A stretch of DNA of 64,000 bases from a phage. The DNA lies in NCBI GenBank assembly GCA_036253495.1, contig GCA_036253495.1_4125.1; one strand, 5' to 3'. Shown piece after piece: positions 17,487 through 39,856 of the stretch. The notes under the pieces were generated by a model. The model was given only the letters and a program-made list of their open reading frames with translations, ran no database searches and was not told the DNA's origin. The position numbers and the translations under genes were made by a program. The first letter of the stretch is position 1. Every line of letters starts with the position of its first letter.

Positions 17487-17512
17487 GATATGGGCTTTTT
17501 TACGTTTTGGTA

Positions 17513-17541: not shown

Positions 17542-17568
17542 ACCTGAACCATTTTTAAGGAGAACCCA

Positions 17569-18742: not shown

Positions 18743-18794
18743 TACGCAATAACATGCAATAACACACAATACAACAAAGACGGGAGTGATTTAG

Positions 18795-20454: not shown

Positions 20455-20465
20455 GGGTCTTAACT

Positions 20466-22690: not shown

Positions 22691-22695
22691 TTGTA

Positions 22696-23142: not shown

Positions 23143-23152
23143 GTTCATGCTA

Positions 23153-23180
23153 TTGACAAGAGCCTGTACTGTGTTACAAT
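23153..23180 (+). promoter_or_regulatory. sigma70-like promoter
   Basis: TTGACA 23153-23158, N16, TACAAT 23175-23180. Confidence 0.6.
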
Positions 23181-23214
23181 GCACAGTAATATTAATTCAA
23201 AAGGTGCACATTAA

Positions 23215-23748: not shown

Positions 23749-23972
23749 AGTATATTCCAAAACACCAGTACTACAGGATGTGTTCTGACATTTACACAAA
23801 ATGGAATACATTTCATCCCCTTTTGAAGAAGAGGCGTCCATATCATGATTACAAGTTGAATCATTTTCTTGGAACTAATTATCAAGAGGTTGTGATGAAA
23901 GATTACATTTTTAACCTTCAGAAATTAATTCAGAATAAAGTTCAAGGAAAGGGGGAGTCACCGTGGGTATAA
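23745..23972 (+). CDS. family A paralog A25, 75 aa
   Basis: motif FLGTNYQEVV; ATGA overlap. Confidence 0.7.
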   Translation: MKYIPKHQYYRMCSDIYTKWNTFHPLLKKRRPYHDYKLNHFLGTNYQEVVMKDYIFNLQKLIQNKVQGKGESPWV

Positions 23973-24169
23973 GACACAGAGACATGCAAGATATTCTTAA
24001 CCAATACAGTGCTCAAATGTTCACTGCAATCAGGTCTTCCAATCAAAATGACGTGTCGGAATTACAGTTACTGATGTACATAGGGACACAATACCAGGAG
24101 GCTTCAGTTGAGACGTATATTAAGTACCTATTGGGTATTATAAGGATGAAAAATGGACAATACTTTTGA
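23963..24169 (+). CDS. family A paralog A26
   Basis: motif YIGTQYQEAS; GTG 23963 or ATG 23984. Confidence 0.6.
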   Translation: MGIRHRDMQDILNQYSAQMFTAIRSSNQNDVSELQLLMYIGTQYQEASVETYIKYLLGIIRMKNGQYF

Positions 24170-24389
24170 ACAAGCACCAGCATCGGATTTTAGTTATGGG
24201 TTTATTATAGATATATTTTCTGGTACTGAAGAATCGGATATACCTCTCTATATCTTTGCTAATATGCGTTATATTTTTCGTATTGCAGAGGACAGTGACA
24301 AATCTGATATGTCTTTTATGATTAAAAAAATTATATACCTATCGTGCTATGAATATATGAATAAAATGAGCGAACACTATGACCTATGA
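24153..24389 (+). CDS. hypothetical protein, 78 aa
   Basis: track ORF; no family motif. Confidence 0.55.
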   Translation: MDNTFEQAPASDFSYGFIIDIFSGTEESDIPLYIFANMRYIFRIAEDSDKSDMSFMIKKIIYLSCYEYMNKMSEHYDL

Positions 24390-24927
24390 TGAGATAATTT
24401 CTTTTGCAAATAAGTTAAGTACACTAACCAAATTGACGGAAGTAGTACTGCAAGATGAGCGTATACTTTCTAGGAGTGAGCTAATTGTTTCACAACACGA
24501 TTACATGACGTATATGTCTTTCAGATCGTCAGGCCGAACAATTATTAAGTTCGGTTCTGTTCCTGAAACAAATGGAAAATTATCTATGTGCACCCATAAC
24601 AATGGGGAATTGTATGGATTAGTGTACAGAAAAGATTCGACAGTACTGAATACTTTTAATGCAGGTGCGAGTGCAGTTGATGTTACATCATTAAGCGATG
24701 TTGACAAACACATAGATTTACCACACCTTGAAATTAATGAAGAAAGTGTTTTTCAGTTAAGTACAGTGTACAATGATATTGAAGTGTTTGGTATTTCTTT
24801 GTGGAATATCCTTCGTTTAAGGGATGATGCTCCTGTATTTGTATATGCAAATTATGAAGACATTGATACTTGTATTGATGAAATGGAGAAATACATTGAT
24901 CAATTTAAACAAAACTTCCACATTTGA
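24379..24927 (+). CDS. family B paralog B18, long form, 182 aa
   Basis: motif EESVFQLSTVYN. Confidence 0.75.
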   Translation: MTYDEIISFANKLSTLTKLTEVVLQDERILSRSELIVSQHDYMTYMSFRSSGRTIIKFGSVPETNGKLSMCTHNNGELYGLVYRKDSTVLNTFNAGASAVDVTSLSDVDKHIDLPHLEINEESVFQLSTVYNDIEVFGISLWNILRLRDDAPVFVYANYEDIDTCIDEMEKYIDQFKQNFHI

Positions 24928-25474
24928 TATTCACGAGAAAGCTAAGCTACTCATCAGTACTGCTGAATATTATTACGATACAGTACTGAGTCAATCACCT
25001 TCTACATTTCGTGATTTAGTTAAATCATTTAATAAAACACAAAAAGAATGTGAGCTTTCATATAATGGTGTGAACTTTATGTATATTAAACCATATATGT
25101 CAAAGCGTGATTTGATTAAATGCAATGATGATTTCAAGATTGATCGTGATTTAAATCGTTTCTTCTACGATGTAAGAAGCAATCTGTATCAACTTACATT
25201 AAATTCCAGTACTTCTTTCATTATTGGATTGGGTAAGAATTTAGGCACAGGTACTTCATTTTATAATAAAGGTGCAGTACAAGATGTGGATCTCAATCCA
25301 AGTACTGATGTTGCATTCCAACAGGATTTGATTATGAATGTGGATTCAGCATCAGTATACAGTTCTAATGTTCTGTGTAAGGAATTTCAGAATTCCAAAA
25401 TTCTTGAGTTATTGTACATTGCGGATTGCAATATACTGTACAAATTTTGTACTCATCTGAAGGAGATTTTATGA
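24878..25474 (+). CDS. family B paralog B19 (start uncertain)
   Basis: motif TDVAFQQDLIMN; last in-frame ATG before B18 stop is 24878 (50-nt overlap); track start 24824. Confidence 0.55.
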   Translation: MKWRNTLINLNKTSTFDIHEKAKLLISTAEYYYDTVLSQSPSTFRDLVKSFNKTQKECELSYNGVNFMYIKPYMSKRDLIKCNDDFKIDRDLNRFFYDVRSNLYQLTLNSSTSFIIGLGKNLGTGTSFYNKGAVQDVDLNPSTDVAFQQDLIMNVDSASVYSSNVLCKEFQNSKILELLYIADCNILYKFCTHLKEIL

Positions 25475-25839
25475 AAAAAGAAATTAGAATCCAATTCGGT
25501 ATGAGGAAAAAAGAGGTCATTTGTACACTGAATCATGAGGTCGTGGAAAGGTTTGATGCATTACAAAAATTCTCCCATTTTGTTCTTGTACTATATGAAA
25601 ATGGGTCTTTTAAAATCTTCACATATGATGATTCAAAAAATTATCGTAATGATTTTGTAAATCTTACAGTACTGTCAGAAGAGGAATTCTTTCAGGAAAG
25701 TACAGTTTGGGATTTACCAGGAGCACCAATTGAATACGTCCGTGCTACACAGGTAGAGATGATCAAAGCAATGCAGAACTATCCAGAAGATCATATGACT
25801 AAGTTTCCTGAATCTATTCATGTAGAGGTTGAGTACTGA
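25471..25839 (+). CDS. family B paralog B20, short form, 122 aa
   Basis: motif EEEFFQESTVWD; SD AAGGAG; ATGA overlap (track 25426). Confidence 0.75.
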   Translation: MKKEIRIQFGMRKKEVICTLNHEVVERFDALQKFSHFVLVLYENGSFKIFTYDDSKNYRNDFVNLTVLSEEEFFQESTVWDLPGAPIEYVRATQVEMIKAMQNYPEDHMTKFPESIHVEVEY

Positions 25840-26177
25840 TGGATTTAGTAAAAGTTACTATAGCCAAACATCAGTACTATGTAATGATTGAGTTAGGTTA
25901 TAACCACAAGAAAGAACATTTTTATTATCTTACATATGAAAAGAATATGTTCAAGATAATCACTAATAATTTAGCACGAGATGTATATCATATTTTTGAT
26001 TACAGTGATTATAGTGAAGAAGAGTTATTTCAGGAATCATTAGTATGGGAGTACAATAGAATTGTAGATATTGAAAAGTTAATTAAGTATCAACAACTAA
26101 TGAAAGATATAATGAATAACTATCCATGTAAACTACAAAGAGAACTGGAATTTATTGTCCAATACAAAGAGGTTTAA
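25839..26177 (+). CDS. family B paralog B21, short form, 112 aa
   Basis: motif EEELFQESLVWE. Confidence 0.75.
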   Translation: MDLVKVTIAKHQYYVMIELGYNHKKEHFYYLTYEKNMFKIITNNLARDVYHIFDYSDYSEEELFQESLVWEYNRIVDIEKLIKYQQLMKDIMNNYPCKLQRELEFIVQYKEV

Positions 26178-26179
26178 TT

Positions 26180-26716
26180 ATGTTAGATTATGACAGAATA
26201 GAGAAAGATGATTGGGACGGTACTCACCATTTAAAGGTTGACACTTTTGAACACGCTCGCAGTACTGCTCAAGATCTTATGCAAATCCATGAGTTCATTT
26301 GTAATAACAGAGAGACTTCTATTTGGACAAAATCTGACAGATTTATTGATTCAAGTTATGATTACTTCAGTATTCGTTCAAATCATCTAGATGATGACGG
26401 GTACAGTGTTGATATGTTCAATATCAACAAATTTAATGACCCTGAATATGATCCAAAATACAGCGGTGGATTTTTAAGTTATTCCCCTAACTATGACAGA
26501 ATAAAGTTCTTTTACGTAGATACTGACATTGTTCTTCCATTTATCGAAGAAGAACTTACAGAAGAACTGTTCTTTCAGATGAGTACTGTTGACGACCCGT
26601 ACATAGTTGGTGTACAATTCATGTTCTCTTGGCTTAAACAGAATAACTTCCCTCCTTTTTATGTTGACCTTACTTTTTACGATCTAATTTGGAATTTTGT
26701 TCGTAATCCATCTTGA
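26180..26716 (+). CDS. family B paralog B22, long form, 178 aa
   Basis: motif EELFFQMSTVDD; N-term ARSTAQDLMQIHEF; C-term FYVDLTFYDL. Confidence 0.8.
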   Translation: MLDYDRIEKDDWDGTHHLKVDTFEHARSTAQDLMQIHEFICNNRETSIWTKSDRFIDSSYDYFSIRSNHLDDDGYSVDMFNINKFNDPEYDPKYSGGFLSYSPNYDRIKFFYVDTDIVLPFIEEELTEELFFQMSTVDDPYIVGVQFMFSWLKQNNFPPFYVDLTFYDLIWNFVRNPS

Positions 26717-26741
26717 CACCTCCTTCTGTGCATGATATAAT
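26713..26741 (+). promoter_or_regulatory. consensus promoter with extended -10
   Basis: TTGACA 26713-26718 (overlaps B22 stop), N17, TGaTATAAT ending 26741. Confidence 0.7.
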
Positions 26742-26772
26742 CTTTTTCATCTAATACGAAAAGGATCATATC

Positions 26773-27279
26773 ATGCAATTCAATCCTGAACTCTCATACA
26801 GTAATGCTATAACTTTTGCAGACAATTTAATTCGCATTCATAACTTTTTAAGAGATGTTGAAACTAATTTTGACGTTACATATGTGGACCCCAAAAGTGG
26901 TGAAATGTTTACCGATACAGTACAGGTATCCAGTATCCTGTCATTTCGTATGCATATGTTATACAGCAAAGTTGAAGCACATAATAATGTCAGAATTCTT
27001 GGTTCGTCATTCTTTGGATTCAATGCGAAAGCGAAAGGTACTCTTCGTTTTTATAAAGAATTTTTGGAGTACGAAGATATAGAATATATAGATCTCATTG
27101 ATATCAATGATGAGTGTGAATACTTTCAGTACTGCACAATCTATTCAGAAGATGTGGTTTTTGCATTAACTGCAATATCTGAATTGCATAAAAAATTACC
27201 ACCAGATGCCCAATTTTACTTTGACCTTAGTGATTATGATATCATGTTGGATCATATTAATCGTGTAGGAGAATTGTAA
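26773..27279 (+). CDS. family B paralog B23, long form, 168 aa
   Basis: motif ECEYFQYCTIYS; C-term FYFDLSDYDI. Confidence 0.8.
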   Translation: MQFNPELSYSNAITFADNLIRIHNFLRDVETNFDVTYVDPKSGEMFTDTVQVSSILSFRMHMLYSKVEAHNNVRILGSSFFGFNAKAKGTLRFYKEFLEYEDIEYIDLIDINDECEYFQYCTIYSEDVVFALTAISELHKKLPPDAQFYFDLSDYDIMLDHINRVGEL

Positions 27280-27782
27280 TGCCTGATATTAGTAAACTTA
27301 ATTACGATGAGATTGAACAGTACGCAAAAGATATCTACGAAATCTATGATGAATTCAAGAACAATACTACAGCATTTGGTTCAATGTATTCTCGAAAAAA
27401 GAGTCTTAACAGGGATAGGAAAAGTTGTTTAACATATACACAGAAATCGGGCGAAATGATGGAAATCTTCTGTGAATCATTTGATGATAGTGAATATAGT
27501 GTAGGCATGAATTACCTATCTTACTCAAAAAAAGGTGAAGTTGTAGTAGATTTACGTCTTGAAAATGGTCGTAATAGAAAGAGTAGTATCAATGAAGAAG
27601 ATGTAAAACTAATTTCTGAAGAAGATTACTTTCAGTTAAGTACTACTATGAATATGTTGGTATTGAGTGTCATAACACTCTACGGTTTCCTTCGATATAA
27701 GCATGAAATTGAAACTGACTTCTATTTTGATTTGAATGATTTTGAAGTATGCAAGGGATATCTAAATGGGAAAAGTAGTTGA
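27279..27782 (+). CDS. family B paralog B24, long form, 167 aa
   Basis: motif EEDYFQLSTTMN; C-term FYFDLNDFEV. Confidence 0.8.
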   Translation: MPDISKLNYDEIEQYAKDIYEIYDEFKNNTTAFGSMYSRKKSLNRDRKSCLTYTQKSGEMMEIFCESFDDSEYSVGMNYLSYSKKGEVVVDLRLENGRNRKSSINEEDVKLISEEDYFQLSTTMNMLVLSVITLYGFLRYKHEIETDFYFDLNDFEVCKGYLNGKSS

Positions 27783-28104
27783 TATTGAGTACATGCACGA
27801 TGGTGATGAAATTTTCATTGTCCAAAAAGAATGCAAGGCTGGACATTGGGTTATCTTCTCTGTAGAAGAGGATGAATCCATTGTATCTTTTATTTCTACT
27901 AAACACAAAGATACGAATTTAGAACTTCTTTACAATTTAAGTGAAGAAGAACTATTTCAAATGAGCACTGCATTTGAATATGATGTATACGAATTATTAG
28001 ATGTACAGAATATTTTGTTGGAGTCTCTTCAGAAACTAAAACACAAAGATTTATTTCTGGTTAAATCATTTATGATGCACAAATATACACTTGAGGTGGA
28101 TTAA
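27766..28104 (+). CDS. family B paralog B25, short form, 112 aa
   Basis: motif EEELFQMSTAFE. Confidence 0.75.
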   Translation: MGKVVDIEYMHDGDEIFIVQKECKAGHWVIFSVEEDESIVSFISTKHKDTNLELLYNLSEEELFQMSTAFEYDVYELLDVQNILLESLQKLKHKDLFLVKSFMMHKYTLEVD

Positions 28105-28535
28105 TGTATTTTGAAATTATAAAAGTTAAATCAAAGGCGTTACTTAATACAAGATTTCAAACGTATGGTTGCACTCATAGTGTAATGCTGGATGATAATA
28201 ACGAATTGTATTATTCTAAAGTAACACAACCAGTACCGGAGAATAAATTCTATATCTATTCTCACAAAGATAACTCACAATATGACATTGAGAATCTCGC
28301 TGTAATGCCACCTGACGAGCTATTTCAGTACAGCTTAGTATGTCCTTACCGTGGTGATATTGACCTTCTCAAGAAGATTCAGGAGGGTTTAATGGACTTT
28401 GTGCCTAAGTCTAGCCCTGAATATTTTTCAACTAATGTAGAGTTTTTAAAGATCGAAAGAGAAATTCCTGATTATATGCTTAGTGATGATGAGTTCTACG
28501 ATAAGCATTTCCCAGGAAAAAAATGGAGAGATTAA
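28104..28535 (+). CDS. family B paralog B26, 143 aa
   Basis: motif PDELFQYSLVCP. Confidence 0.75.
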   Translation: MYFEIIKVKSKALLNTRFQTYGCTHSVMLDDNNELYYSKVTQPVPENKFYIYSHKDNSQYDIENLAVMPPDELFQYSLVCPYRGDIDLLKKIQEGLMDFVPKSSPEYFSTNVEFLKIEREIPDYMLSDDEFYDKHFPGKKWRD

Positions 28536-29005
28536 TGACATTCCAGGAAGATATTGATTTTGCAAAAAAGATTTACAAAATTCATCTTATAATGGAAAGT
28601 ACTGAGTTCCAAAAGCGTTCATATGTCGATAAGATTAAAAGCTGTGATAAAAGTTCATTTGTCATAAAACTACCAACATTCAAATCCAAAAGAGAGGCCA
28701 TCTACGCTACGATTTATGATGATTCAGAATACAATCTAATGGATTTGTACATGACCTTTACCCCAGGGAATACACTTGTATGTTACTTCCAATGGGAGGA
28801 AGAGACAATTGTACTTGATAATATAAGTTCTTATAAGCCCACTGAAGAGACGCACTTTCAGTTATCTTTGATCTATACAGAAGAAACGGTTCGTGCTATA
28901 ATGTTGTATTCATATCTCAATAGTGTAAATGCCAGTGCTTTCTATCTGGATTTAGTACATCTTGAACTTATTGAGGAATTACTTGCAGAGGAACTTTCTC
29001 TATGA
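28535..29005 (+). CDS. family B paralog B27, long form, 156 aa
   Basis: motif EETHFQLSLIYT; SD GGAGAG, TAATG overlap (track 28523); C-term FYLDLVHLEL. Confidence 0.75.
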   Translation: MTFQEDIDFAKKIYKIHLIMESTEFQKRSYVDKIKSCDKSSFVIKLPTFKSKREAIYATIYDDSEYNLMDLYMTFTPGNTLVCYFQWEEETIVLDNISSYKPTEETHFQLSLIYTEETVRAIMLYSYLNSVNASAFYLDLVHLELIEELLAEELSL

Positions 29006-29472
29006 TAGAATCCGACGAGTTAGTACTGGATGGTCACGTTATCCGATACGATTCATTTGCGGCGTGTATTGATTTTGCAAAGATTTTGATGAAGATTTAT
29101 CATGCTGGTAATAATGGTAAATTTGACAAAGTGTTTGAAAAATCATTTACTCATAATGCATGGTATTACGCTGGTACTGAAGTTTTAAACATAGGGGAAT
29201 CAGTGTGTGATAATGAATCATTCATGAGCTTTGATTACTATTATATTCAGTACCATTCATACCTTGATAAAATTTGTGTTCATGACAGTGATTTTAAAGT
29301 ATTACCTTCATATATTGAAATATGTAATGAAGAGATGTACTTTCAAAACTCATTATTATATACAAGTAATATACTTTTACTATCTGTGATTGTAACATAC
29401 TTAAGAAGCGAAGGACTTAATTCCTTTTATATTGATTTGGATTTCTTTAATACATTTTTGGAACATTTATAA
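29002..29472 (+). CDS. family B paralog B28, long form, 156 aa
   Basis: motif EEMYFQNSLLYT; C-term FYIDLDFFNT. Confidence 0.8.
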   Translation: MIESDELVLDGHVIRYDSFAACIDFAKILMKIYHAGNNGKFDKVFEKSFTHNAWYYAGTEVLNIGESVCDNESFMSFDYYYIQYHSYLDKICVHDSDFKVLPSYIEICNEEMYFQNSLLYTSNILLLSVIVTYLRSEGLNSFYIDLDFFNTFLEHL

Positions 29473-29481
29473 AGGTGCTAT

Positions 29482-29988
29482 ATGTCGAGGAAACTATCAG
29501 AACTAATAAAGTTCGCAAAGGATTGTCTTGATACAATAACTTATTTGTACGTTAATGAAGTTAATTTGCATAGATATTTCGCTATCCATCACAGTACTGA
29601 ATCGTCTTTCAATATTCGTCACGGTGCTCATAGTATATATTTTCATACTAAAGCTGAAGATCGTCTGGCTCATTCTATGTTTGAGAAAGGTAAAACGGAC
29701 TATATTCTATTTCGTTCAGATGGTTCTGATATAAAATATATTTCACACCAAAGAGGAAAAGCCCAATTTATTAATCATATACTTCCGTACATTACGGATT
29801 TAACGGATGAAAATTATTTCCAAAATTCATTAATTTACAATGACTCTGAACTTAAAGCTATGTTTATTCTATCGTACTTTAAAAAATATAGTGAGTTTCA
29901 GAGAATTAGTTTTGAATTTGCTTCAATGAAGCACTTTATTAAACAGGTAAGGATTTTAAAAAATGCTGACAAACGAAACAATAGATAA
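29482..29988 (+). CDS. family B paralog B29, long form, 168 aa
   Basis: motif DENYFQNSLIYN. Confidence 0.8.
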   Translation: MSRKLSELIKFAKDCLDTITYLYVNEVNLHRYFAIHHSTESSFNIRHGAHSIYFHTKAEDRLAHSMFEKGKTDYILFRSDGSDIKYISHQRGKAQFINHILPYITDLTDENYFQNSLIYNDSELKAMFILSYFKKYSEFQRISFEFASMKHFIKQVRILKNADKRNNR

Positions 29989-30574
29989 AATTAGTCAGAT
30001 AAGTTTAGAACTAATTCGTATTCATGAATTTGCATGGCGTCTAACAAATCGTGTTATTTCATTTCATACCAGTACTGACCAAAATTCTACATACAAATTT
30101 GACCGTGGTGACAAATGGTTTGATTTAATGGATGAAAATGATAAATGTATCATCTGCGTAAGAACTGAATTGACCGACCGCAACAGTGCAAGAGATTTAG
30201 ATATATATATGCCCAGTTCTTATATTTGTATCTCAAGAAGCGATGGTATTTTTATTAGTTCATCTGGACTTAATTATCTTAATAAAGTCTACATTGATAT
30301 GGATGAAGAAGAATACTATGTCACAACACATGAACCTGAATTTCTGGATATTCCAGATGATGATGTACTCGACGAAACATTGTTTCAGTACTCATTAATT
30401 CACAACGCCTGTGTTATTGATGCTATTAAATTTTGTAAAAATCTATCCCCTAAATTACCATTAACAAAGTATATCAAATTAGAACCTGAAATATTCAAAG
30501 AACAGGACTGGGATGGGTTATTACTTAAATTAAAAAGTATTACTGAAGAAAACATATGTACAATTGAGGATTAA
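29963..30574 (+). CDS. family B paralog B30, long form, 203 aa
   Basis: motif DETLFQYSLIHN. Confidence 0.75.
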   Translation: MLTNETIDKISQISLELIRIHEFAWRLTNRVISFHTSTDQNSTYKFDRGDKWFDLMDENDKCIICVRTELTDRNSARDLDIYMPSSYICISRSDGIFISSSGLNYLNKVYIDMDEEEYYVTTHEPEFLDIPDDDVLDETLFQYSLIHNACVIDAIKFCKNLSPKLPLTKYIKLEPEIFKEQDWDGLLLKLKSITEENICTIED

Positions 30575-30578
30575 TTGA

Positions 30579-31211
30579 ATGAGTACAAAAAGAAAACCAA
30601 TTTCAAAGTACGTTTTTCATCGCCTAGAATATAAGCACTGCATTGCGTATGCACGAGCCTTAACGGACATATTACCACGTCTGAAAGATGATAAGTTCCT
30701 TGAATGTTATGACATGCGTTTTCATAACAATGTTCTTGAGTACATAGAATCAGATGATAGTGAGTTGAATGAAGTATGGCTTGATTTCAGTCCTAGTGGT
30801 TTAGATAAAAATAGAGTTGGGAACTTGGGTCTATTTTATACGCACTGCTTGAACTTCGATTTGTCAGATAAAACATTAGTACTGGATAGTAATGAGGTAC
30901 TTAGATTGAACCTCAATGTTATGGATTATTCAGAAGAATCATTCTTTCAAAATAGTTTAATATATGAACCGAATGATTTATTATATACTATTGTTTTCCC
31001 ATATCTACATGAGCACCTTAAAGGTACTACAGTTCAAAGAGCAGACATTACCTTTAGTTTAGTAAATTTATTCAAGTACAGTGACGTATTCAAAGAAATA
31101 TGTATTGAAGGCGGTTACTTCGATGACCTTGCTGATTTGAATAACATGGCGTTTGAAAATGATAATTATTTTAACGATACCTATATAGGCGGTTCAAGGA
31201 TAATGAAATGA
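30579..31211 (+). CDS. family B paralog B31, long form, 210 aa
   Basis: motif EESFFQNSLIYE. Confidence 0.75.
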   Translation: MSTKRKPISKYVFHRLEYKHCIAYARALTDILPRLKDDKFLECYDMRFHNNVLEYIESDDSELNEVWLDFSPSGLDKNRVGNLGLFYTHCLNFDLSDKTLVLDSNEVLRLNLNVMDYSEESFFQNSLIYEPNDLLYTIVFPYLHEHLKGTTVQRADITFSLVNLFKYSDVFKEICIEGGYFDDLADLNNMAFENDNYFNDTYIGGSRIMK

Positions 31212-31759
31212 GTTTACCATTAACAATAAACCCAGTACTAAAAGATCTATCTAAAGTTATTATGAACTTTTTTCCTATTGTACTACAAGATATAAAACCT
31301 ATATCAAATCTTGGTTCATGTTATATTCGACACAGTAATAATAAAAACGGTACTATAGGTACTTTGTACATTAGTGATAGTTCATTGTTTCTTTTGCACC
31401 CTGAGTTATCAGATGAAGAAATTGCAGATGGTTGTTCGGAGGCACAGAATCGTGTACTCACCCGTTATCCATATGTGTACATAAGCAGCATTAAACATAA
31501 AAATCTTGCTAATAACTTTTGCCAATGCAATCACGGTGATAACTTAATAGATTTAAATGTTGACGATGGGGTGCTTTTCCAGTACAGTACTCTATATGAT
31601 CAGTTAACAATGGATATCATTGAGTTGGATAAGTTAGTGCGTGATTACATCCCTGATGGTTTCTATCTTACAATGGATCTTAATGTACTGAATTCCGTAA
31701 TGGAACAAGGCACTCTACCAAACATTCTGAGAGACTTACGAGCATTTAAAAGACCCTGA
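31208..31759 (+). CDS. family B paralog B32, long form, 183 aa
   Basis: motif DGVLFQYSTLYD; stop codon sits in loop of terminator. Confidence 0.75.
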   Translation: MSLPLTINPVLKDLSKVIMNFFPIVLQDIKPISNLGSCYIRHSNNKNGTIGTLYISDSSLFLLHPELSDEEIADGCSEAQNRVLTRYPYVYISSIKHKNLANNFCQCNHGDNLIDLNVDDGVLFQYSTLYDQLTMDIIELDKLVRDYIPDGFYLTMDLNVLNSVMEQGTLPNILRDLRAFKRP

Positions 31760-31771
31760 TGGGTCTTTTTT
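31749..31771 (+). terminator. rho-independent terminator
   Basis: AAGACCC/GGGTCTT stem followed by T-run. Confidence 0.8.
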
Positions 31772-31781
31772 CGTTTATAGG

Positions 31782-31810
31782 TTGACATTAGTAATGTAGA
31801 GTGTTAGAAT
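31782..31810 (+). promoter_or_regulatory. promoter of the B33-MCP unit
   Basis: TTGACA 31782-31787, N17, TAGAAT 31805-31810. Confidence 0.65.
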
Positions 31811-31841
31811 ATTGTAACCTATTTAAAAGAGAGCGTATTTT

Positions 31842-32390
31842 ATGGATAGCATTGTAAATATTATTGAATGCATGATTTATATTTTTAAAAACAGTCCTGA
31901 TAATAAGACTGTTAATTTTGAGTTAGGTGAATTAAATATCAACCCAAAAGAATCTCCATCAGTATATTCTAATATTACATTGTTCATTAGTGGTTTAGGT
32001 TATGTCGTAAAGATCATTAATGCGACACAACGTAGACAAGAATACAAGATGGAAATTCTACGCGGAGATAGTGAAATTCGTCTATATAATGTATCACGCT
32101 ACACTAAGATACTGGTAAAACATTCTTATGAAGATGACGAGAAGTTAGCTGTAGCTAAAATTGATTCAAACACTTTCAAAGAACAAATGTTCATGGCTGC
32201 TATGTCATATGATCAATTAACTTATAATAAGCTAGAAATGGGTTATAAATTACTTAGGTTATTAGAAGATCATTATGAAATTACAATTATGGACAAATTG
32301 CTTACCAAAAGCCAAGAGGAACTAGAGAAAATGCATTTGTTATTAAAAAAATATATTGATGATAATTTAAATTATGGAGAAGTACGTTGA
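31842..32390 (+). CDS. family B-like divergent paralog B33, 182 aa
   Basis: degenerate motif [12 protein letters not shown] at the family position; co-transcribed with MCP. Confidence 0.6.
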
Positions 32391-33799
32391 AAAGTAATTT
32401 AGAAAATATACGCAAAAAAGCCGATAATTTAGTACTATGTTGTATAGGGGCTTTATTCGCTGTTACTTTAGTTTCCGGTGTTGTTCATGGTAGTTTTATT
32501 ATTGCACTAATCGGTGCAGTTTTATTATTAGTAATGCTAACTCCTTTACTATTTGTTGAAAGTAATGCGTTCACTCGAACGTTGTTAAGTATAAATGTGA
32601 TGTGCTGGAGTGCGTTACTAATACATCTTGGCTTAGGGATGGTGGAATGGCACTTTACAGTTTTTGTCTTTTTAAGTTTATTGATTGTATGGCGTGACTG
32701 GCGTTGTGTATTAGCAGGTTCAGTACTGATTGCTATACATCATTTATTATTTGGATTGTTACAGGGTGCTGGAATTCCAATATTATTCGTGTTTTCTTTT
32801 CACCATATTTCGTTATGGCACATTATAGAGCACGCAATATATGTAGTAGTACAGGCAATAGTTCTGATGTACGTAGCGTACATTATGGAGAAAGATGCAA
32901 ATGAAGCAGATGAAATTCAACGAATTGCAAGATCAGTGAATTCTGAAGACGGCAATATTACTTTAGAAATACAAAATAATCATTTCAACTCCGAATTTGC
33001 ACAGACTTTTAGTAAAACAATATCAGCTATGCGTGAGGCAATTGAACAAGTACAAATTACAGTTCAGTCAATGAAAAGCAACTCCTATCATCTCGAAAGT
33101 AAAAGTAATGATTTAGCTTTCAGAACTGAAACACAAGGACAGGCACTTACTCAAATCGCTGCTGCTATGGAAGAATTAAGTGCTACATCTGCAAATACAT
33201 CTGATAACTCCAATACTGCAAAAAGTATGGTTAAAACTACAAAAGAATCCAGTACTAATGCAATTGAAAGTATCAATAATTGCAAAGAGCAGATGGATAG
33301 AATTAAAGAAGATTCTAATGCTATAGTTGCTATACTCAAAAATATAGAAACTATTGCTTTCCAGACTAATATTCTTTCTTTAAATGCCAGTATTGAAGCT
33401 GCTAAAGCTGGTGAACATGGACGTGGATTCTCTGTTGTTGCACAGGAAGTTCGTAACTTAGCAATGAAATGTGATGCATGTAGTAAAGAAATTAAAGAAA
33501 TCGTTGATAACTCCGTAAAAAACAACAACCAAGGAATAGAACAAATCAACGAAACTGCAAGTGATATTGATTCTATTGTAAAAAATGTTGATTCACTCTT
33601 GCAGTTCATTGATGATTTAGCTATAATGGCTGAACAACAAAGCATTGCAATCCTTCAGGTTACTGAGAGTGTTAATATGATGGACCGTTCAGTACAGCAA
33701 AATGCGGAGCATGTAAAGGACACAATGATGATGGTAGACAATCAACAGTCTGAAGTACATGCTTTACAAAAAGCCACTTCGATTTTTAACGTGAAATAA
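32387..33799 (+). CDS. methyl-accepting chemotaxis protein (multi-TM His-rich N-domain + MCP signalling domain), 470 aa
   Basis: [37 protein letters not shown] matches the MCP hairpin-tip core (cf. Tsr [37 protein letters not shown]); TTG start in TTGA overlap, SD GGAGA. Confidence 0.93.
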
Positions 33800-33805
33800 T
33801 TTTAA

Positions 33806-33844
33806 AGCCAGGGTATTGACTCTGGCTTTTTTCTTTGCTATTAT
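33806..33844 (+). terminator. terminator with embedded promoter (4th copy of this design)
   Basis: AGCCAG/CTGGCT stem + T6; TTGACT 33816-33821 in the loop, N17, TATTAT 33839-33844. Confidence 0.65.
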
Positions 33845-33872
33845 TTTAATATTATTTAACCGAGGATATCAT

Positions 33873-34427
33873 ATGGACAATTACCTATTAATCTTACAAA
33901 TTTACAACGAACTGGGAAAACTTCTTGAAACGTGTAATTCACAGGGACGTAAATTAAGAATCGGTTTCGATTATGAAATTGAATACACAGGAGAGGGTAT
34001 TGCAACGCAGCAGATGTTCACAGAAGAAAATAAAACTATTCTGTGCGTTTACCCACATGAAGGTGATGAGGAAGACTGTGTTGTTGATTTTTCATATGAC
34101 AGTTCTTGGGCTTTTATTTCACGTAATCCTCGAATGAAAGAGGCAGTGGATTACAAAGAACCATCATATGATCCTATTGCGTTGTTCAGTACTGAGAATT
34201 TAGAAGAACAAAATTTCCAGAGTTCTGTAACTCACGATAAATTAATCACTGATGCACTTACGATTGAAGCTTTAGCACGTAACTATAAATTTGATTTCAA
34301 TCTCAATAATTATTATATGTCATATAGTGCAACAGCATCATTACTCACTGATGATCAATTAGTAGTATTACTCAAGGACTTGAAAAACTACGCACAAACG
34401 AGAAAAGAACATGAAAACACTAATTGA
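33873..34427 (+). CDS. family B paralog B34, long form, 184 aa
   Basis: motif EEQNFQSSVTHD; start re-set from 33816 (track ORF runs through terminator). Confidence 0.7.
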   Translation: MDNYLLILQIYNELGKLLETCNSQGRKLRIGFDYEIEYTGEGIATQQMFTEENKTILCVYPHEGDEEDCVVDFSYDSSWAFISRNPRMKEAVDYKEPSYDPIALFSTENLEEQNFQSSVTHDKLITDALTIEALARNYKFDFNLNNYYMSYSATASLLTDDQLVVLLKDLKNYAQTRKEHENTN

Positions 34428-34983
34428 TATTTTTAAAGTACTAGAAGAACTTACTCATAAGTTAGATGAACAAAAAAGAACTGAGAATATTTTTCATTAC
34501 TTCAACAATCCAATGTACCGATTAGTTTTTGATTGCAGTACTTTGTATCGTTATGCTAATATCCAAATACAACACTGCATTCAACATAAAACCAAAAATA
34601 TATGGTCAGTTGATGCTTCTTATGTGGCATCAGGCAGAGAGAGTAAATTTTTGGGTTCAGTTTCTGATTGTAGTCTTACTGTGAATAAACTCAAAGAAAC
34701 TAACGAATTAATCGTCAGAAATTTGTACGATGATTATTATGATGATGAAGAATATCTTCATATTGCACCTGAGCTACAAAATCCAGAAGAGCGAGAAGCA
34801 TATCTTTTCCAGTTGTCGTTGCTCCCAGGTTATGATATGATAGCTAAAGCTGATTTTGTATATCAACTATCAATGCAACTTGGTAGTGGGGAGTGTTCTG
34901 CTTTCAATAATCTATACAATGAAAGTACTGAAACACAAGAAGAATTATTGGAGGAATTAAATGCATTTCTCAAATCTTTATAA
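34411..34983 (+). CDS. family B paralog B35, 190 aa
   Basis: motif EAYLFQLSLLPG. Confidence 0.7.
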   Translation: MKTLIDIFKVLEELTHKLDEQKRTENIFHYFNNPMYRLVFDCSTLYRYANIQIQHCIQHKTKNIWSVDASYVASGRESKFLGSVSDCSLTVNKLKETNELIVRNLYDDYYDDEEYLHIAPELQNPEEREAYLFQLSLLPGYDMIAKADFVYQLSMQLGSGECSAFNNLYNESTETQEELLEELNAFLKSL

Positions 34984-35539
34984 TTACATGTCCGAAGAGT
35001 ATCAATATTACACTAAGATGGTTTTGAAAGTGAATGCTATTCTTAATAGTGATTTATGTAAAACTAAAAAGACATTTAATCTCCCATATATGCGTTTGGC
35101 GATTACTAAAGACCAGGAAGGTATGTATGATCATGCAGTAGTTTCGATGAATGATCTACGTGTCTTTCTGATAATTAAGTACAATAAAGAAGATTTAACC
35201 AACAACGATGGGTACATTAACTACGATTATATTATTGGAGGAAATGCTGAAGTTCCAGGGACAAGTGAATTTGCAGGGATTGTTATTTCAGGTAAAAAAA
35301 TTCCAAAGATTAATCTTAACAGTAGTACTATAGAAGAAGAACTATTCCAGTTAAGTACTATGTACAGTACTAACGAATTGGATTTATTACTTTTCAGTAC
35401 AATCGTCAATCATGAACTGGATAAGAAAGACAAATACTGTCCATTGCAACAAATTGTTCATCGTTTCAAACGTAGTGAATTTAAAAGAATTCATGAAGGT
35501 CTGGACAGTCTTATTAACAATACTGGGGATTTCTCATGA
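34961..35539 (+). CDS. family B paralog B36, 192 aa
   Basis: motif EEELFQLSTMYS; SD GGAGGA. Confidence 0.75.
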   Translation: MHFSNLYNYMSEEYQYYTKMVLKVNAILNSDLCKTKKTFNLPYMRLAITKDQEGMYDHAVVSMNDLRVFLIIKYNKEDLTNNDGYINYDYIIGGNAEVPGTSEFAGIVISGKKIPKINLNSSTIEEELFQLSTMYSTNELDLLLFSTIVNHELDKKDKYCPLQQIVHRFKRSEFKRIHEGLDSLINNTGDFS

Positions 35540-36096
35540 AATATAGTCTTTACTATAGAGGGAAGTTCCTTGAGAAGTTTATTGAAGATTGTGTAGCTGC
35601 ACTGAGTTTAATTCGTGAAGGTGAATACATTAAAGTCAATCACACTGTACTAAGAGATCTTAATTTTTTTCTGAGTGGTGATTTGAATAATGATATGCAC
35701 TTCACAATAACGTACAACCACAAAGATATCATTGAAATCAATACACAACAACGACACATAAAAGAATACACCCGATTACGCAATACCAAGACAAAGCGTG
35801 TAGTAATTAAAAAAGGTGATGTAGAGTTGATGTGTAAAGATAGTACTGCAATAGATATCAGTACTTACTTCGATAATGAAGAAGATATGGATTGTGATTG
35901 CTTCCAGAAGAGTTTAATTATTGATGATCCGTATGTACTGTACGGTGCAGTACTGGCTCCGTTCTGTCAGAAGAACTTACCAGATGGATGTACGGTTGAA
36001 TTGAACTTGACAGAACTCATGAATGATGATATATTTGAGTACATGAGTACTAACTCCAAGGCAATGATTGAACATATTAAGGCAATCCAATGTTAA
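35536..36096 (+). CDS. family B paralog B37, 186 aa
   Basis: motif DCDCFQKSLIID; ATGA overlap. Confidence 0.7.
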   Translation: MKYSLYYRGKFLEKFIEDCVAALSLIREGEYIKVNHTVLRDLNFFLSGDLNNDMHFTITYNHKDIIEINTQQRHIKEYTRLRNTKTKRVVIKKGDVELMCKDSTAIDISTYFDNEEDMDCDCFQKSLIIDDPYVLYGAVLAPFCQKNLPDGCTVELNLTELMNDDIFEYMSTNSKAMIEHIKAIQC

Positions 36097-36575
36097 ATCC
36101 AGCAGACGTTATTAAATTTTGTAAAATTCTTGAGAAGTATTCTCATAAATTTGTGCACGAAGTACAGATAATGATTGATGGCATTCCCTTTAACTTCGTG
36201 AAAAACAACGACATTATCGCTGTGTTCTGTGGCTCATGGACATTTTGTGAACTCAACTGTCAAGAATCTCAAAATGTTATTGTGAAACGAAACATGATCC
36301 TATCAAGGGAAAGTTCAGTATTCATTGAACCAAGTGGTGAAATCATATACGAGAAAAAGAACGGCGACAGAACTTTAGATGATTTTATGGCTGAATTGAG
36401 CCTTGATAATGAGTTTCATAGAAATGCAGTACTGATACATAGTGCTATGGTGCATGAAACTAATTTAAATTCTATATCAATTAATTTCGGTGTTTATTCT
36501 TATTACAAATTTACATTTGATATGATATTTCAAACACTTAACAAACATCCTATATTCTGGAAATGCAATGAATAA
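36090..36575 (+). CDS. family B-like degenerate paralog B38, 161 aa
   Basis: array position and size; motif decayed (DFMAELSLDNE). Confidence 0.5.
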   Translation: MLNPADVIKFCKILEKYSHKFVHEVQIMIDGIPFNFVKNNDIIAVFCGSWTFCELNCQESQNVIVKRNMILSRESSVFIEPSGEIIYEKKNGDRTLDDFMAELSLDNEFHRNAVLIHSAMVHETNLNSISINFGVYSYYKFTFDMIFQTLNKHPIFWKCNE

Positions 36576-37026
36576 AGACGATTACGAATTACTGAAAAAG
36601 TTAATCCAGTACTGCCTCAATGAACTGGATAATGGTAAAGCTCGAAAATCAGGTTCATGGTTTGATGTAAGCTATCCATCAGACGGCGATGATATGATGA
36701 CATTATGGTCAAATGAAAGATACATTGATTATAGTGTAATGGATAATACTACTATAGATTATGTCAATGACAATGTATGGTATTTCAATACACAGTTAAT
36801 CATTGATATTAAAAGTATAGATTTAAGTACTGAGATTGATGAAGCAACCATATTTCAATTAAGTACTTTGTATTCTGATGAAGTGATATATCCGTTATTA
36901 CTTCTCCTACAGTTGCGAGCCATTGCAGCAGAACGTGGTTTCACATCCATATCATTTGCTCATGACATTGATGTACGAAGAGCTGAAATTACAAAATTAG
37001 TTGAGGGATATGATGGAACACTTTAG
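36568..37026 (+). CDS. family B paralog B39, 152 aa
   Basis: motif EATIFQLSTLYS. Confidence 0.75.
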   Translation: MNKDDYELLKKLIQYCLNELDNGKARKSGSWFDVSYPSDGDDMMTLWSNERYIDYSVMDNTTIDYVNDNVWYFNTQLIIDIKSIDLSTEIDEATIFQLSTLYSDEVIYPLLLLLQLRAIAAERGFTSISFAHDIDVRRAEITKLVEGYDGTL

Positions 37027-37504
37027 TACTAAAGACTTTGTGGAATTGCATAAAATTCTTGAAGAAAAATATATCAATGAACAATATGGTCGATTCGAAC
37101 TGGCTCCAGATATTATTCTTAAAATACAAAAAGATGGTATGATCCGAGTTGTATTTGAGCAGAAAAGAGGTTTAGACCATGACATTTTCATGCTCTTTGA
37201 TAGCAATAGTCCTATCTATGATGCACCAAGTTTCGATACAAGCACCATTGGTTCACAATCCGCAGTCTTTCATCCAGGAACTACTGTTGTAAAAATCGAT
37301 GGTGTAGATTGCAACATGCGACCTGTATCATTGGATGAAATTGATGAAGTTGAATTTCAGAACAGTACTGTGAATAATTATAGTGCAATGTTCACCTACA
37401 TGTGCTATCTTAACAGTACTTGTTGCAAATTTCTTATGTACACATCGTATGTAAATGAAGATGAAGTACTACACTATGTATTGAAAAAACTAAGAGAATT
37501 ATGA
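37010..37504 (+). CDS. family B paralog B40, 164 aa
   Basis: motif DEVEFQNSTVNN; ATG 37010 after SD GAGGGA (track TTG 37001). Confidence 0.7.
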   Translation: MMEHFSTKDFVELHKILEEKYINEQYGRFELAPDIILKIQKDGMIRVVFEQKRGLDHDIFMLFDSNSPIYDAPSFDTSTIGSQSAVFHPGTTVVKIDGVDCNMRPVSLDEIDEVEFQNSTVNNYSAMFTYMCYLNSTCCKFLMYTSYVNEDEVLHYVLKKLREL

Positions 37505-37505
37505 T

Positions 37506-38108
37506 ATGATCATTGACATGCCTATTCTTAATAAAATGCTTAACCCTGTCATTACGTTAGCTAAAAGTATTTCTAATAATGAAAAGTTGCATCTCCCATA
37601 CTCTATGTTAACGTATGCAACTGATTTTTACAGGATTGAAATCTCGGCATGTGAACAACGAATTACACTAGCATTCAAACGCCTTGGTGCTGGACTTGCA
37701 AATGATTTTGATATTTCACTGATACTTCATGGTGAATTAGAAGATAGTAAAATTCTGTCCTATGAAAGAATTCTTCGCAGTACAAATGAAATAAAATTAT
37801 TCAAAACATTTTCACATTATAATGGTTCTGATGTTTCATATTATTTTGATAAGGATTCATTTAAGAATATCAAAAGTGTTGAAGTGAAAGATTTCAGCGA
37901 AGAATGGTATTTTCAAAATACATTAATTCATTCTTTACCTTCATATGAAGAAATGAAGATGAACATTGATCTTTATGAAAAATTAAAATCAGAACTGAAA
38001 TGTAATTTTCTATTATCAATGAACTACAAAAAGATCAGTACTGATGTGGTATTGGAAGATGAACTAATGAAACGAATTTGGTCTGCTATACCAGTTATTA
38101 AGGAATAA
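37506..38108 (+). CDS. family B paralog B41, 200 aa
   Basis: motif EEWYFQNTLIHS. Confidence 0.75.
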   Translation: MIIDMPILNKMLNPVITLAKSISNNEKLHLPYSMLTYATDFYRIEISACEQRITLAFKRLGAGLANDFDISLILHGELEDSKILSYERILRSTNEIKLFKTFSHYNGSDVSYYFDKDSFKNIKSVEVKDFSEEWYFQNTLIHSLPSYEEMKMNIDLYEKLKSELKCNFLLSMNYKKISTDVVLEDELMKRIWSAIPVIKE

Positions 38109-38110
38109 TA

Positions 38111-38650
38111 ATGCACATTGCAACATTATCAAATACTAAAGAATTTGAGCTATGGCCTGAGAAAGTTAACAGCTTAAGACAGCGTTATGTGAATTTCTGC
38201 CGTGGTATCAGGAAAGCCAGTAGAATGTCACATTCACTAAGCATGTCAATTGATGGTTGTGTTATGAATGCAGATAAGAACCGTTTGTACGTTGAATCAT
38301 ACAGTTCGCAAGCTCTGTACATTATGCTTCATGCTGGTACACAAATCCCACAGAATTCGATTGGTTGTTATTCAATTACATGGTCTGGACGAAAGTCTAC
38401 TAAATTATATCCGTGCAAAAGAAACGACCAATCGTTCAGTGTTGATATTAATTACTGTGAGTACACTGAAGAAGAACACTTTCAGCACAGTACTCTTCAT
38501 GATATCATTGAGTACAATGAATGCATCAATGTACTGGATAAATGTTATGATTTAGAACATAATACTGGTATCGTTGTAGTTAATAATTGCTTTTTTGATA
38601 GTGATGTACTTGATACATTAGATTATTTTTTAGAGGGTTACAATGACTAA
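38111..38650 (+). CDS. family B paralog B42, 179 aa
   Basis: motif EEEHFQHSTLHD. Confidence 0.75.
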   Translation: MHIATLSNTKEFELWPEKVNSLRQRYVNFCRGIRKASRMSHSLSMSIDGCVMNADKNRLYVESYSSQALYIMLHAGTQIPQNSIGCYSITWSGRKSTKLYPCKRNDQSFSVDINYCEYTEEEHFQHSTLHDIIEYNECINVLDKCYDLEHNTGIVVVNNCFFDSDVLDTLDYFLEGYND

Positions 38651-39260
38651 CATTAGAACAGAGTATGTTAAGTACGAGAAAGCACTACGTGATTTACTAA
38701 ACATTGCACCGGATTTAATTAGAGCTAAACAAACACTATTTGACAAGTACGGTCCGAAAAGTGAACTCAAGCTATCAAAAAAGGGAAAACCCACACAATA
38801 TACAACGCTGTATAATAGATATAGCGTTGGGATTTGTAATATCTATACAGATGAATTAGTACTGGAATTAACCCAAGACGATGATGAAGAAGCACATGAT
38901 TTATTTCCTGAATTTGAAGAGTGCATGTTTAGTCCAGGTAATCCAGTGTTTTTAACCTTAAATGATGGAAGAAAAACGCTAAAAGAATCGTTCATCACAT
39001 ATGATGCCAAAACTAAAACACTAATGGATATTGAATCTGGGTATAAGACTGATCTGAAATCACTTGAAGATTGTAAGGGTGCATTGTTTCAGATGGGTGT
39101 AATCACAGAGGTTACCACTACACCAGAAGAATTATGGCTTATGGTTTCAGTACTGAATGATTGGTACAAAGTGAAGAGTCTACGAAATATGTTCATTTAT
39201 ATCAAGCCTGATTGCATCAAGAAAGAAACACTAATTAACAATATGGTAATACCTGAATGA
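38643..39260 (+). CDS. family B paralog B43, 205 aa
   Basis: motif KGALFQMGVITE. Confidence 0.65.
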   Translation: MTNIRTEYVKYEKALRDLLNIAPDLIRAKQTLFDKYGPKSELKLSKKGKPTQYTTLYNRYSVGICNIYTDELVLELTQDDDEEAHDLFPEFEECMFSPGNPVFLTLNDGRKTLKESFITYDAKTKTLMDIESGYKTDLKSLEDCKGALFQMGVITEVTTTPEELWLMVSVLNDWYKVKSLRNMFIYIKPDCIKKETLINNMVIPE

Positions 39261-39856
39261 AAAAAGATCCAAATGAAGACTTAATCAATTCTTTAAGTAC
39301 TATCAAAGATTTGTGGTTACGATATCGTGGATTGTATAGTGTTAAAGATACAGAAAATAACATACTCCAAAGTCTTAAAATCACGATTCGAATGCAATTC
39401 AAAAATGGAATGGCAGTTGATGTTGAGATGAACAAAACTGGAGTTTATGTATATGATGGTTCTCGAACTGCAATCTTTATGGCAGAATTCATAGATGAAG
39501 ACTGTAATCTATATTGTTCATACGACATTGAAAGTGGTGATATCGAAATGTTCGCTAATGAACCTATCCTGCTCCGTTTCACTAAATCATGGAATGAAGA
39601 TTACATTATATATCAAAATGGAGGCTTCTTAAATTCCGATGAGGAACCCATCGATAACATAGAAGAAATGGCATTCCAGAGTAGTACTGTTAATGATGAT
39701 GCATTATCTTATCAAGAAATCCTTGACACAGTGAATGGTTATGATAAGATACAGGCTGCAATGAAAGAGAACGGTATCTGTTACCTTACAGTACTGGACA
39801 AACTCTTCTACGATGAACTGTGTTCGTACCTGAACTGTATTCTCACTGAGGATTGA
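39257..39856 (+). CDS. family B paralog B44, 199 aa
   Basis: motif EEMAFQSSTVND; ATGA overlap. Confidence 0.7.
   Translation: MKKDPNEDLINSLSTIKDLWLRYRGLYSVKDTENNILQSLKITIRMQFKNGMAVDVEMNKTGVYVYDGSRTAIFMAEFIDEDCNLYCSYDIESGDIEMFANEPILLRFTKSWNEDYIIYQNGGFLNSDEEPIDNIEEMAFQSSTVNDDALSYQEILDTVNGYDKIQAAMKENGICYLTVLDKLFYDELCSYLNCILTED

Follow-up and report, generated by a model that had tools for sequence, protein, structure and literature searches.

A 64,000-nucleotide (nt) stretch of phage DNA (NCBI GenBank assembly GCA_036253495.1, contig GCA_036253495.1_4125.1), here referred to as the window, encodes a 470-amino-acid (aa) methyl-accepting chemotaxis protein (MCP). Our analyses indicate that this gene almost certainly encodes an intact, expressed-looking chemoreceptor of an A4-like jumbo coliphage, composed of a six-transmembrane (six-TM) histidine-cluster sensor, a HAMP-like linker and a 36-heptad signalling hairpin, and that it was captured as a whole MCP gene from an Enterobacterales-type lineage. 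The gene call itself is already present in GenBank, and MCP-like genes are known to occur sporadically in other large phages. New are the assignment to a six-TM family, the uncharacterised histidine-cluster sensor, its predicted fold resembling cyclase membrane anchors, the selection acting on the gene in the phage, its restriction to the A4 lineage and its apparent absence from E. coli. The gene and the parts of its product are as follows.

32387..33799, + strand: MCP coding sequence, 470 aa, TTG start (open reading frame (ORF) list, Pfam MCPsignal, Tsr match)
32387..32902, + strand: six-TM sensor domain, residues 1-172, unnamed family, predicted N-in, C-in
32645..32653, + strand: E87-W-H89, periplasmic start of TM4 (H89 in 100% and E87 in 93% of 171 representatives)
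32738..32743, + strand: H118-H119 in TM5 (H119 invariant, H118 96%)
32831..32833, + strand: H149 in TM6, invariant in the family
32891..33040, + strand: HAMP-like helix-connector-helix linker, residues 169-218 (phmmer, AlphaFold2 (AF2))
33032..33796, + strand: kinase-control (signalling) hairpin, residues 216-470, 36-heptad length
33170..33175, + strand: E262-E263 in EELSAT, the sole canonical methylation motif kept, at the Tsr Q311 site (offset mapping)
33353..33463, + strand: hairpin tip IAFQTN...VRNLA, residues 323-359, the region of CheA/CheW and trimer contacts (Tsr alignment)

The signalling hairpin and its linker

The initial annotation of this stretch had called the cytoplasmic domain of the 470-aa protein unmistakably that of an MCP, and the Pfam MCPsignal profile (PF00015) bears this out, matching residues 281-434 at 127.3 bits (cut-off 34.6, E=7.1e-37). 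Among solved structures, the top match was E. coli Tsr (6s1k, E=7.5e-36). Residues 216-469 align with Tsr residues 264-517 with zero gaps, as expected from the earlier statement that the hairpin arms lack indels relative to Tsr, and residues 246-469 align with residues 1-224 of 1qu7. Judged by the alignment to Tsr, the hairpin is of Tsr length, with no heptad insertions or deletions, which places it in the 36-heptad (36H) class, to which all receptors of E. coli belong. Within the 37-residue tip, 30 residues (81%) are identical to Tsr and the other 7 changes are conservative, so that the description of the tip as nearly identical to that of Tsr was sound in substance and only mildly overstated in its wording. 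No other part of the protein is as conserved as the tip, which forms an invariant block throughout the six-TM MCP family. The protein thus has the long antiparallel coiled-coil hairpin with a conserved tip by which MCPs are recognised, and the conservation of the tip suggests that it could control CheA via CheW.

Between the membrane part and the hairpin, phmmer paired residues 174-215 with the HAMP region of Tsr (219-263), leaving a 3-residue indel, which accounts for the only indels found. The connector reads EDGNITLEI where Tsr has GGDLVKPIE, and in the AF2 model a helix spanning residues 143-184 leads through an extended connector, which has a G-N-I motif, to a second helix that begins at residue 203. 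The Pfam HAMP profile (PF00672) did not match the MCP even at E<=10. With regard to adaptation, the EELSAT motif is accompanied by E-T, T-Q, K-D and Q-Q at the equivalents of Tsr methylation sites 297, 304, 493 and 502, respectively.

A six-transmembrane sensor with conserved histidines

The N-terminal sensor was assigned its predicted N-in, C-in topology by the positive-inside rule, and its AF2 model, built on a 40-sequence alignment, had a mean predicted local distance difference test (pLDDT) score of 93.4 and a predicted template modelling (pTM) score of 0.87. By sequence profile, the domain had no match in Pfam (E<=10), NCBIfam or the Protein Data Bank (PDB), and MHYT and cytochrome-oxidase-like identities, which were considered, are unsupported because these searches came back empty. 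By comparison, a profile of the sensor itself retrieved 5,638 representatives (50% identity) at E<=1e-3, and 3,085 at E<=1e-10, from a library of 1.84 billion sequences; a near-identical variant of the phage protein matched this profile over positions 8-174 with E=3.1e-55. In 9 of the 10 members checked (1 of them weakly) the sensor is fused 5' of an MCP signalling domain, and some members add PAS or HAMP domains. None of the viral structures in BFVD had the sensor fold (no match at E<=1e-3).

Among 171 diverse family members, H89, H119, H149, G84 and F93 are invariant, while E87, H118, Q126 and D13 are conserved at 93-99%. The phage protein retains 23 of the 26 positions that are conserved at >=85% in the family, including all three invariant histidines, and the conserved polar residues are predicted, by their helix positions in the model, to occupy the periplasmic half of TM4-TM6. 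In its predicted fold the domain resembles the six-TM anchors of the adenylyl cyclases AC9 (6r3q), AC5 (8sl3) and Rv1625c (7yzi), as well as the membrane anchor of the Pseudomonas aeruginosa diguanylate cyclase ImcA (8wcn). Sequence identity between the sensor and these cyclase anchors is 10-15%, a likeness of fold and not a demonstrated common ancestry. The output domains differ, with an MCP hairpin in the phage protein and a cyclase in the class III adenylyl cyclases and ImcA; the histidine cluster is a trait of the six-TM MCP sensor family, compared on that family's side only.

Capture from an Enterobacterales-type lineage

The closest relatives of the phage protein are full-length chromosomal MCPs of approximately 483 aa (99% coverage, 37-40% identity) from Enterobacter soli, E. 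wuhouensis, E. chuandaensis, Pseudocitrobacter corydidari, Pantoea and Siccibacter, followed by proteins of Cupriavidus, Paraburkholderia and Aquabacterium with approximately 31% identity. The membrane part (35-41%), the linker (32-46%) and the signalling part (35-38%) show comparable identity to the Enterobacterales group, and in a neighbour-joining tree the phage protein branches as the sister of this MCP group, on a long branch. The even identity across the parts and the tree together indicate that the gene was captured whole and is not a chimera derived from Tsr. The likeness to Tsr pointed out initially therefore holds for the hairpin class and the tip, while the phylogeny places the origin of the gene in a distinct six-TM MCP family of the Enterobacterales. 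The homologue of E. soli lies 3' of exbB-exbD and is an unremarkable gene of the chromosome.

The six-TM MCPs of Enterobacterales and Burkholderiales (e.g., those of E. soli and P. corydidari, G163CM_43090) have the same architecture as the phage copy, with approximately 470-485 aa, and share with it the 36H-length hairpin as well as D13, G84, E87, H89, H118, H119, Q126 and H149. The phage copy differs from them in being AT-rich (GC content at third codon positions (GC3) 25%), in its long branch, in having approximately 13 fewer N-terminal residues, in a lysine for arginine at the Tsr R388 equivalent and in being encoded by a jumbo phage, virulent or persistent, instead of a chromosome. No characterised member of the six-TM MCP family was found in our searches.

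A phage gene under purifying selection, confined to A4-like phages

The nucleotide identity of 98.7-99% to Escherichia phage A4 (ON286972, 355,528 bp, host E. coli LF82) identifies the window as DNA of an A4-like jumbo coliphage. The two are collinear across the complete 22-47 kb of the window, and the host or prophage junction that would have contradicted a phage origin is absent. In phage A4 the same ORF is A4_379, which already bears the GenBank label 'methyl-accepting chemotaxis protein'; the gene goes unmentioned in the paper that reports the phage (PMC9355613). At >=99% identity the MCP is found not only in phage A4 but also in at least 4 further phage contigs of 351-359 kb, in agreement with the earlier view that it is a genuine phage gene and not host contamination. 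The 90%-identity protein cluster of the phage MCP comprises 10 variants, each >=99% identical; several of these were found in 'E. coli' assemblies, on contigs of 351-359 kb that represent entire A4-like phage genomes, and the reading frame is unbroken in 9 of 9 full-length variants.

The composition of the MCP gene is that of its surroundings (GC 34.4%, compared to 34.1% for the window; GC3 24.8%, like the flanks), as had been stated, and the gene is fully ameliorated to the phage. The claim that it is a long-resident gene is supported by this composition and qualified by the confinement of the gene to the A4-like lineage. Three copies of the hexamer AGTACT are located in the gene exactly where they had been listed (32431, 32722 and 33251), that is, 3 copies in 1.4 kb compared to approximately 0.4 expected by chance; the window as a whole has 213 copies compared to approximately 18-21 expected, a 10- to 12-fold excess. 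A comparison with A4 showed 25 codon differences in the MCP gene, 22 synonymous and 3 non-synonymous (crude dN/dS approximately 0.04), and in residues 1-172 all 8 of the differences are synonymous. This pattern of codon differences is that of a gene under purifying selection.

As to palindromes in general, AGTACT is by far the most enriched palindromic hexamer of the window and about half of its copies are extended to C-AGTACT-G; two stretches, 8179-11977 (3.8 kb) and 13800-20587 (6.8 kb), are free of it, and several GC-rich palindromes (CCGCGG, CCATGG, AGCGCT and others) are wholly missing from the window.

Outside the A4 lineage, Asteriusviruses of the PBECO4 and G17 types match the window up to approximately 22.66 kb and again from approximately 39.85 kb, at 80-88% identity, and a megablast search with the intervening 17 kb (approximately 22660-39850), which include the MCP gene, found no similar phage apart from A4. 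In these comparisons, this interval is an A4-lineage-specific hypervariable block of an array of paralogous genes. Chemoreceptors had been described as a rare phage cargo and indeed, in 50,697 phage records, an MCPsignal relative was present in just a handful of genuine phage genomes. Other large phages with such relatives are represented by PHROG 8572, Vibrio phage vB_VmeM-Yong and Microcystis phage MaAM05, and MCP-like genes have been mentioned in the literature for Nitrosospira phages; the matches in other large phages span only part of the signalling domain, whereas the MCP of the window is full-length and has a sensor. A scan of IMG/VR yielded 264 viral contigs with MCPsignal relatives, none above 41% identity. 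Few of these alignments touch the sensor even partly (the one that reaches furthest starts at residue 121), and many of the matches are located at the ends of contigs, where they probably represent flanking host DNA.

Many short 'phage' records with an MCP approximately 34% identical to the query also encode CheW (OR850984, OR845520, OR851771, the OR84xxxx series (Listeria phage LM), the MT83xxxx series and OQ572403). Because of this co-occurrence they look like fragments of host chromosomes, and such host-like records inflate the apparent frequency of phage MCPs.

A two-gene cassette with its own expression signals

The MCP gene is the second gene of a short unit whose signals, together with those of its boundaries, are listed below.

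31748..31776, + strand: intrinsic terminator of the preceding paralog gene (31208-31759), 9-bp stem, 4-nt loop, T-run
31782..31810, + strand: sigma-70-type promoter, TTGACA-17 nt-TAGAAT with extended -10 TG, 11/12 match
31842..32390, + strand: orf182, ORFan encoding 182 aa (soluble), leading gene of the cassette, with translational coupling to the MCP gene (ORF list)
32376..32380, + strand: Shine-Dalgarno sequence GGAGA, 7 nt 5' of the TTG start (read from the sequence)
33804..33836, + strand: intrinsic terminator 3' of the MCP stop codon, 11-bp stem, 4-nt loop, T-run
33816..33844, + strand: next promoter-like site, TTGACT-17-TATTAT with TG, 10/12 match

The order of terminator, promoter, two genes and terminator proposed initially was recovered. 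The upstream terminator (31748-31769) folds with -14.3 kcal/mol (z=-4.98; none of 200 shuffled sequences was as stable) and the downstream one (33804-33829) with -15.5 kcal/mol (z=-4.14), and the promoter at 31782-31810, with its 11 of 12 matching positions, scores highest within 30.5-35.5 kb. The TTG start codon of the MCP gene overlaps the TGA stop codon of orf182 as TTGA, which, together with the GGAGA sequence upstream, confirms the translational coupling that had been noted. The cassette interrupts a tandem array of phage paralogs and has same-strand paralog genes on both flanks. Its own promoter and terminator and its patchy presence among relatives are as described for morons, while the composition of the MCP gene does not differ from that of its neighbours. 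The cassette therefore looks, from its sequence, like a two-gene promoter-to-terminator insertion in the array with a moron-like layout. Phage morons likewise are host-derived genes with their own promoter and terminator between phage genes; unlike a classic moron, the cassette is in a phage that is not temperate and shows no compositional contrast.

Two possible traces of the insertion were considered and rejected. Searches for flanking direct repeats as an insertion scar gave short matches only, at chance level, and a 15-nt 'YDQLT' match between orf182 and the preceding paralog (14 of 15 nt) is, by a rough estimate, within chance.

Near-consensus sigma-70 sites (11-12 of 12 positions) number 24 on the + strand of the window and 2 on the - strand, with approximately 3.7 expected per strand; this imbalance suggests an early-type region read by host RNA polymerase, in which the promoter of the cassette is not a chance occurrence. 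Perfect TTGACA/TATAAT promoters account for 12 of the + strand sites, and examples of + strand promoters are located at 695, 1034, 1302, 1732, 4184, 4678, 6188, 6527, 26713, 47798 and 55418. The + strand also encodes 92 of the 99 ORFs of >=100 aa, and the window as a whole resembles an extensive early region served by the RNA polymerase of the host. The promoter-like site at 33816-33844 stands 5' of the next paralog gene (ATG at 33873). Its -35 hexamer, TTGACT, sits in the loop and 3' arm of the MCP terminator, such that signals for termination and re-initiation overlap.

Possible function in the infected cell

We tentatively favour, somewhat short of an even chance, the interpretation that the protein is a working receptor which joins the arrays of the host, brings in a new sensory input and thereby steers or holds infected cells. 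It is preferred over a mere jamming of the arrays because selection has kept the sensor as well as the tip. The cassette would be transcribed early by host RNA polymerase from the sigma-70 promoter, and the MCP would be translated through its coupling to orf182 and inserted into the inner membrane with both termini inside. It would then join trimers-of-dimers of the host receptors and couple to host CheA and CheW, since its tip and length class match those of E. coli receptors and it appears to come without a CheW of its own. CheW was not detected in A4 by tblastn (CheA, CheY, CheR and CheB were not individually searched), and a phage receptor would therefore have to use the CheA and CheW of the host if it signals at all. 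That this could work is in line with the behaviour of 36H receptors of other enterics, which signal through E. coli CheA and CheW. A membrane-embedded site formed by E87, H89, H118, H119, Q126 and H149 near the periplasmic leaflet may sense the signal, for which our best guess is a metal ion, or else a cofactor or ligand of the haem or redox type. As the phage MCP has no NWETF tail, adaptation would rely on the CheR and CheB tethered to neighbouring Tsr and Tar, as in low-abundance receptors, acting on the single EE site. Infected or persistently infected cells might in this way be steered or held by a cue that benefits the phage. Phage A4 does not lyse broth cultures and its infection strategy has been called atypical (PMC9355613), and Asterius-like phages are over-represented among persistent infections in E. 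coli assemblies (bioRxiv 10.1101/2024.12.31.630880); infected cells may therefore live long enough to swim. The more specific idea that a persistent jumbo coliphage steers its virocells to favourable conditions or host densities, by a sensory modality that the host appears to lack, is doubtful at present.

Several points weigh against a working receptor. The equivalents of Tsr methylation sites 297 and 493 are lost and the protein ends at the Tsr 518 equivalent, without the NWETF tether, so that adaptation may be poor, which would favour a locked output. The equivalent of Tsr R388 is K340 in the phage protein, while arginine is found in >=90% of the family. A sensing role for the histidine cluster is suggested only by conservation and predicted topology. 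A tblastn search with the MCP gave zero matches in PBECO4-type Asteriusviruses, and its absence from all of these makes the gene dispensable for this type of phage. Finally, the apparent novelty of the input to the host comes from a search at the DNA level, sensitive down to approximately 65-70% identity, in which the E. soli gene matched only the hairpin-tip region of tar among 5,426 complete E. coli genomes; on this result E. coli appears to be without this type of receptor, and no E. coli homologue for the signal of the sensor was found at the DNA level.

Some of these points would be expected if the protein instead poisoned the arrays, a rival that we consider rather unlikely but that has more in its favour than the remaining ones. 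As a dominant, poorly adapting unit in host arrays it would lock CheA on or off and thus abolish chemotaxis or fix the swimming mode, which might keep infected cells in place, save energy or, through altered flagellar behaviour, block flagellotropic or motility-dependent superinfection. The conserved tip makes entry into the arrays plausible, the early and strong promoter would give high expression, and the single canonical methylation motif, the missing NWETF tether and the change to lysine at the trimer-contact residue R388 would all suit such a role. A tip alone would suffice for a jammer, yet the sensor keeps 23 of 26 conserved positions and all invariant histidines, and synonymous changes exceed non-synonymous ones along the full length of the gene, with all 8 in residues 1-172 synonymous. 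These two observations speak for a working receptor.

The other explanations are progressively less likely, from a role unrelated to CheA through a neutral passenger to contamination. It is improbable, though conceivable given the tight translational coupling to the lineage-specific ORFan orf182 and the atypical, non-lytic behaviour of the A4 lineage in broth (PMC9355613), that the protein is a membrane sensor or scaffold which signals to a phage partner, possibly orf182, and not to CheA, with the timing of lysis or persistence or the polar localisation of phage processes as output. The tip, which is 81% identical to Tsr and invariant in the family, is what continued coupling to CheA and CheW predicts, and orf182 has no recognisable domain. 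The use of MCPs as polar landmarks would speak for such a role. That the gene is a functionless passenger, a host gene that recently hitch-hiked without a role in the phage, has only a slight chance of being correct. Its restriction to one sub-lineage and to a hypervariable 17-kb stretch would fit this explanation, which is opposed by a GC3 of 24.8% like that of the flanks, the acquired AGTACT copies, the 22:3 ratio of synonymous to non-synonymous differences, the intact frame in 9 of 9 full-length variants and the presence of its own promoter, ribosome-binding site and terminator. Host contamination, an assembly chimera or a prophage-host junction, which is what many of the small 'phage' records with MCP and CheW seem to represent, was refuted and can practically be dismissed here. 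The window is collinear with A4 at 98.7-99% identity, megablast with the cassette found no match in the 5,426 complete E. coli genomes, the best match among bacterial proteins reaches just 40% identity and phage paralogs are present on both flanks; the occurrence of the gene at >=99% identity in A4 and other phage contigs and its phage base composition exclude contamination.

Relation to known receptors and implications

Tsr (and likewise Tar, Trg and Tap) shares with the phage MCP the 36H kinase-control module, the tip and one EE-x-x-A-T motif, and the linker of the phage MCP resembles its HAMP region. The phage MCP differs from Tsr in having six TM helices instead of two and in lacking a periplasmic four-helix-bundle ligand-binding domain, and its cytoplasmic part is only approximately 34% identical to that of Tsr. 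In lacking the NWETF tether it is like Trg, Tap and Aer and unlike Tsr. A comparable membrane layout has been described for the aerotaxis transducer HtrVIII of Halobacterium salinarum (class III topology), in which six TM helices are also fused straight to the MCP domain and an extracellular domain is absent. Conserved membrane histidines of HtrVIII have been proposed to bind haem (PMC13401364), and the phage MCP has conserved membrane histidines too. The TM region of HtrVIII has been reported to be like cytochrome c oxidase subunit I, while the model of the phage sensor, compared here with HtrVIII by description, gave no cytochrome oxidase match.

No signalling pathway in biology is better understood than E. 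coli chemotaxis. In a literature search we found no functional study of any phage-encoded MCP and no description of a virus-encoded receptor acting on E. coli chemotaxis. Infected cells may gain or lose an input for navigation. If the protein is a functional receptor, phages would manipulate the behaviour of their hosts and not metabolism alone, which could also help to explain the persistent, non-lysing lifestyle of A4-like and Asterius-like phages. A steering of virocells by the receptor would be the first instance of a virus controlling how bacteria navigate by means of a receptor that it encodes itself. Through it, a sensor family of more than 5,000 representatives could further be de-orphanised in the chemotaxis model E. 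coli, a host that offers Förster resonance energy transfer (FRET), receptor-less strains and cryo-electron tomography (cryo-ET) of arrays. If the protein only jams arrays, it would represent a novel type of factor for host takeover or superinfection exclusion. The gene is also of relevance to phage therapy, as A4 has been used in a cocktail against adherent-invasive E. coli (AIEC).

The paralog array and the surrounding region

The array that the cassette interrupts consists of at least 42 tandem paralogs on the + strand between 12,958 and 40,796, with another at 53749-54438. These encode proteins of approximately 110-210 aa, which share an invariant F-Q-x-S motif and have pairwise identities of 10-17%. 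The initial annotation had taken the gene upstream of the MCP gene, orf182, for a divergent member of this family (family B), a placement that was not confirmed. An iterated profile hidden Markov model (HMM) of the 42 window paralogs matched orf182 with E=33 only, hhalign gave a probability of 0.1% and the F-Q-x-S motif is missing; on the two profile comparisons, the reading of orf182 as a divergent array paralog was rejected. Homologues of orf182 were found in A4-like phages only. It has no recognisable domain in Pfam or PHROG, apart from a weak match (E=1e-9) to PHROG 36809, a family without an assigned function.

An antisense ORF of 164 aa (33151-33645, - strand) lies entirely inside the MCP gene. 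Its product is rich in leucine, serine and isoleucine and of low complexity, and it is most likely not a gene but a by-product of the codon pattern of the coiled coil. Rfam and tRNA scans of the window found nothing. In the A4 genome, the MCP gene is located approximately 51 kb from the left end, within a block of approximately 90 kb (A4 1-92000) with more than 200 small + strand genes. Nearly all of these are hypothetical; the block also encodes DNA and RNA ligases, a polynucleotide kinase/phosphatase, a Dam-type methyltransferase, a Sir2-like protein and a Ser/Thr phosphatase.

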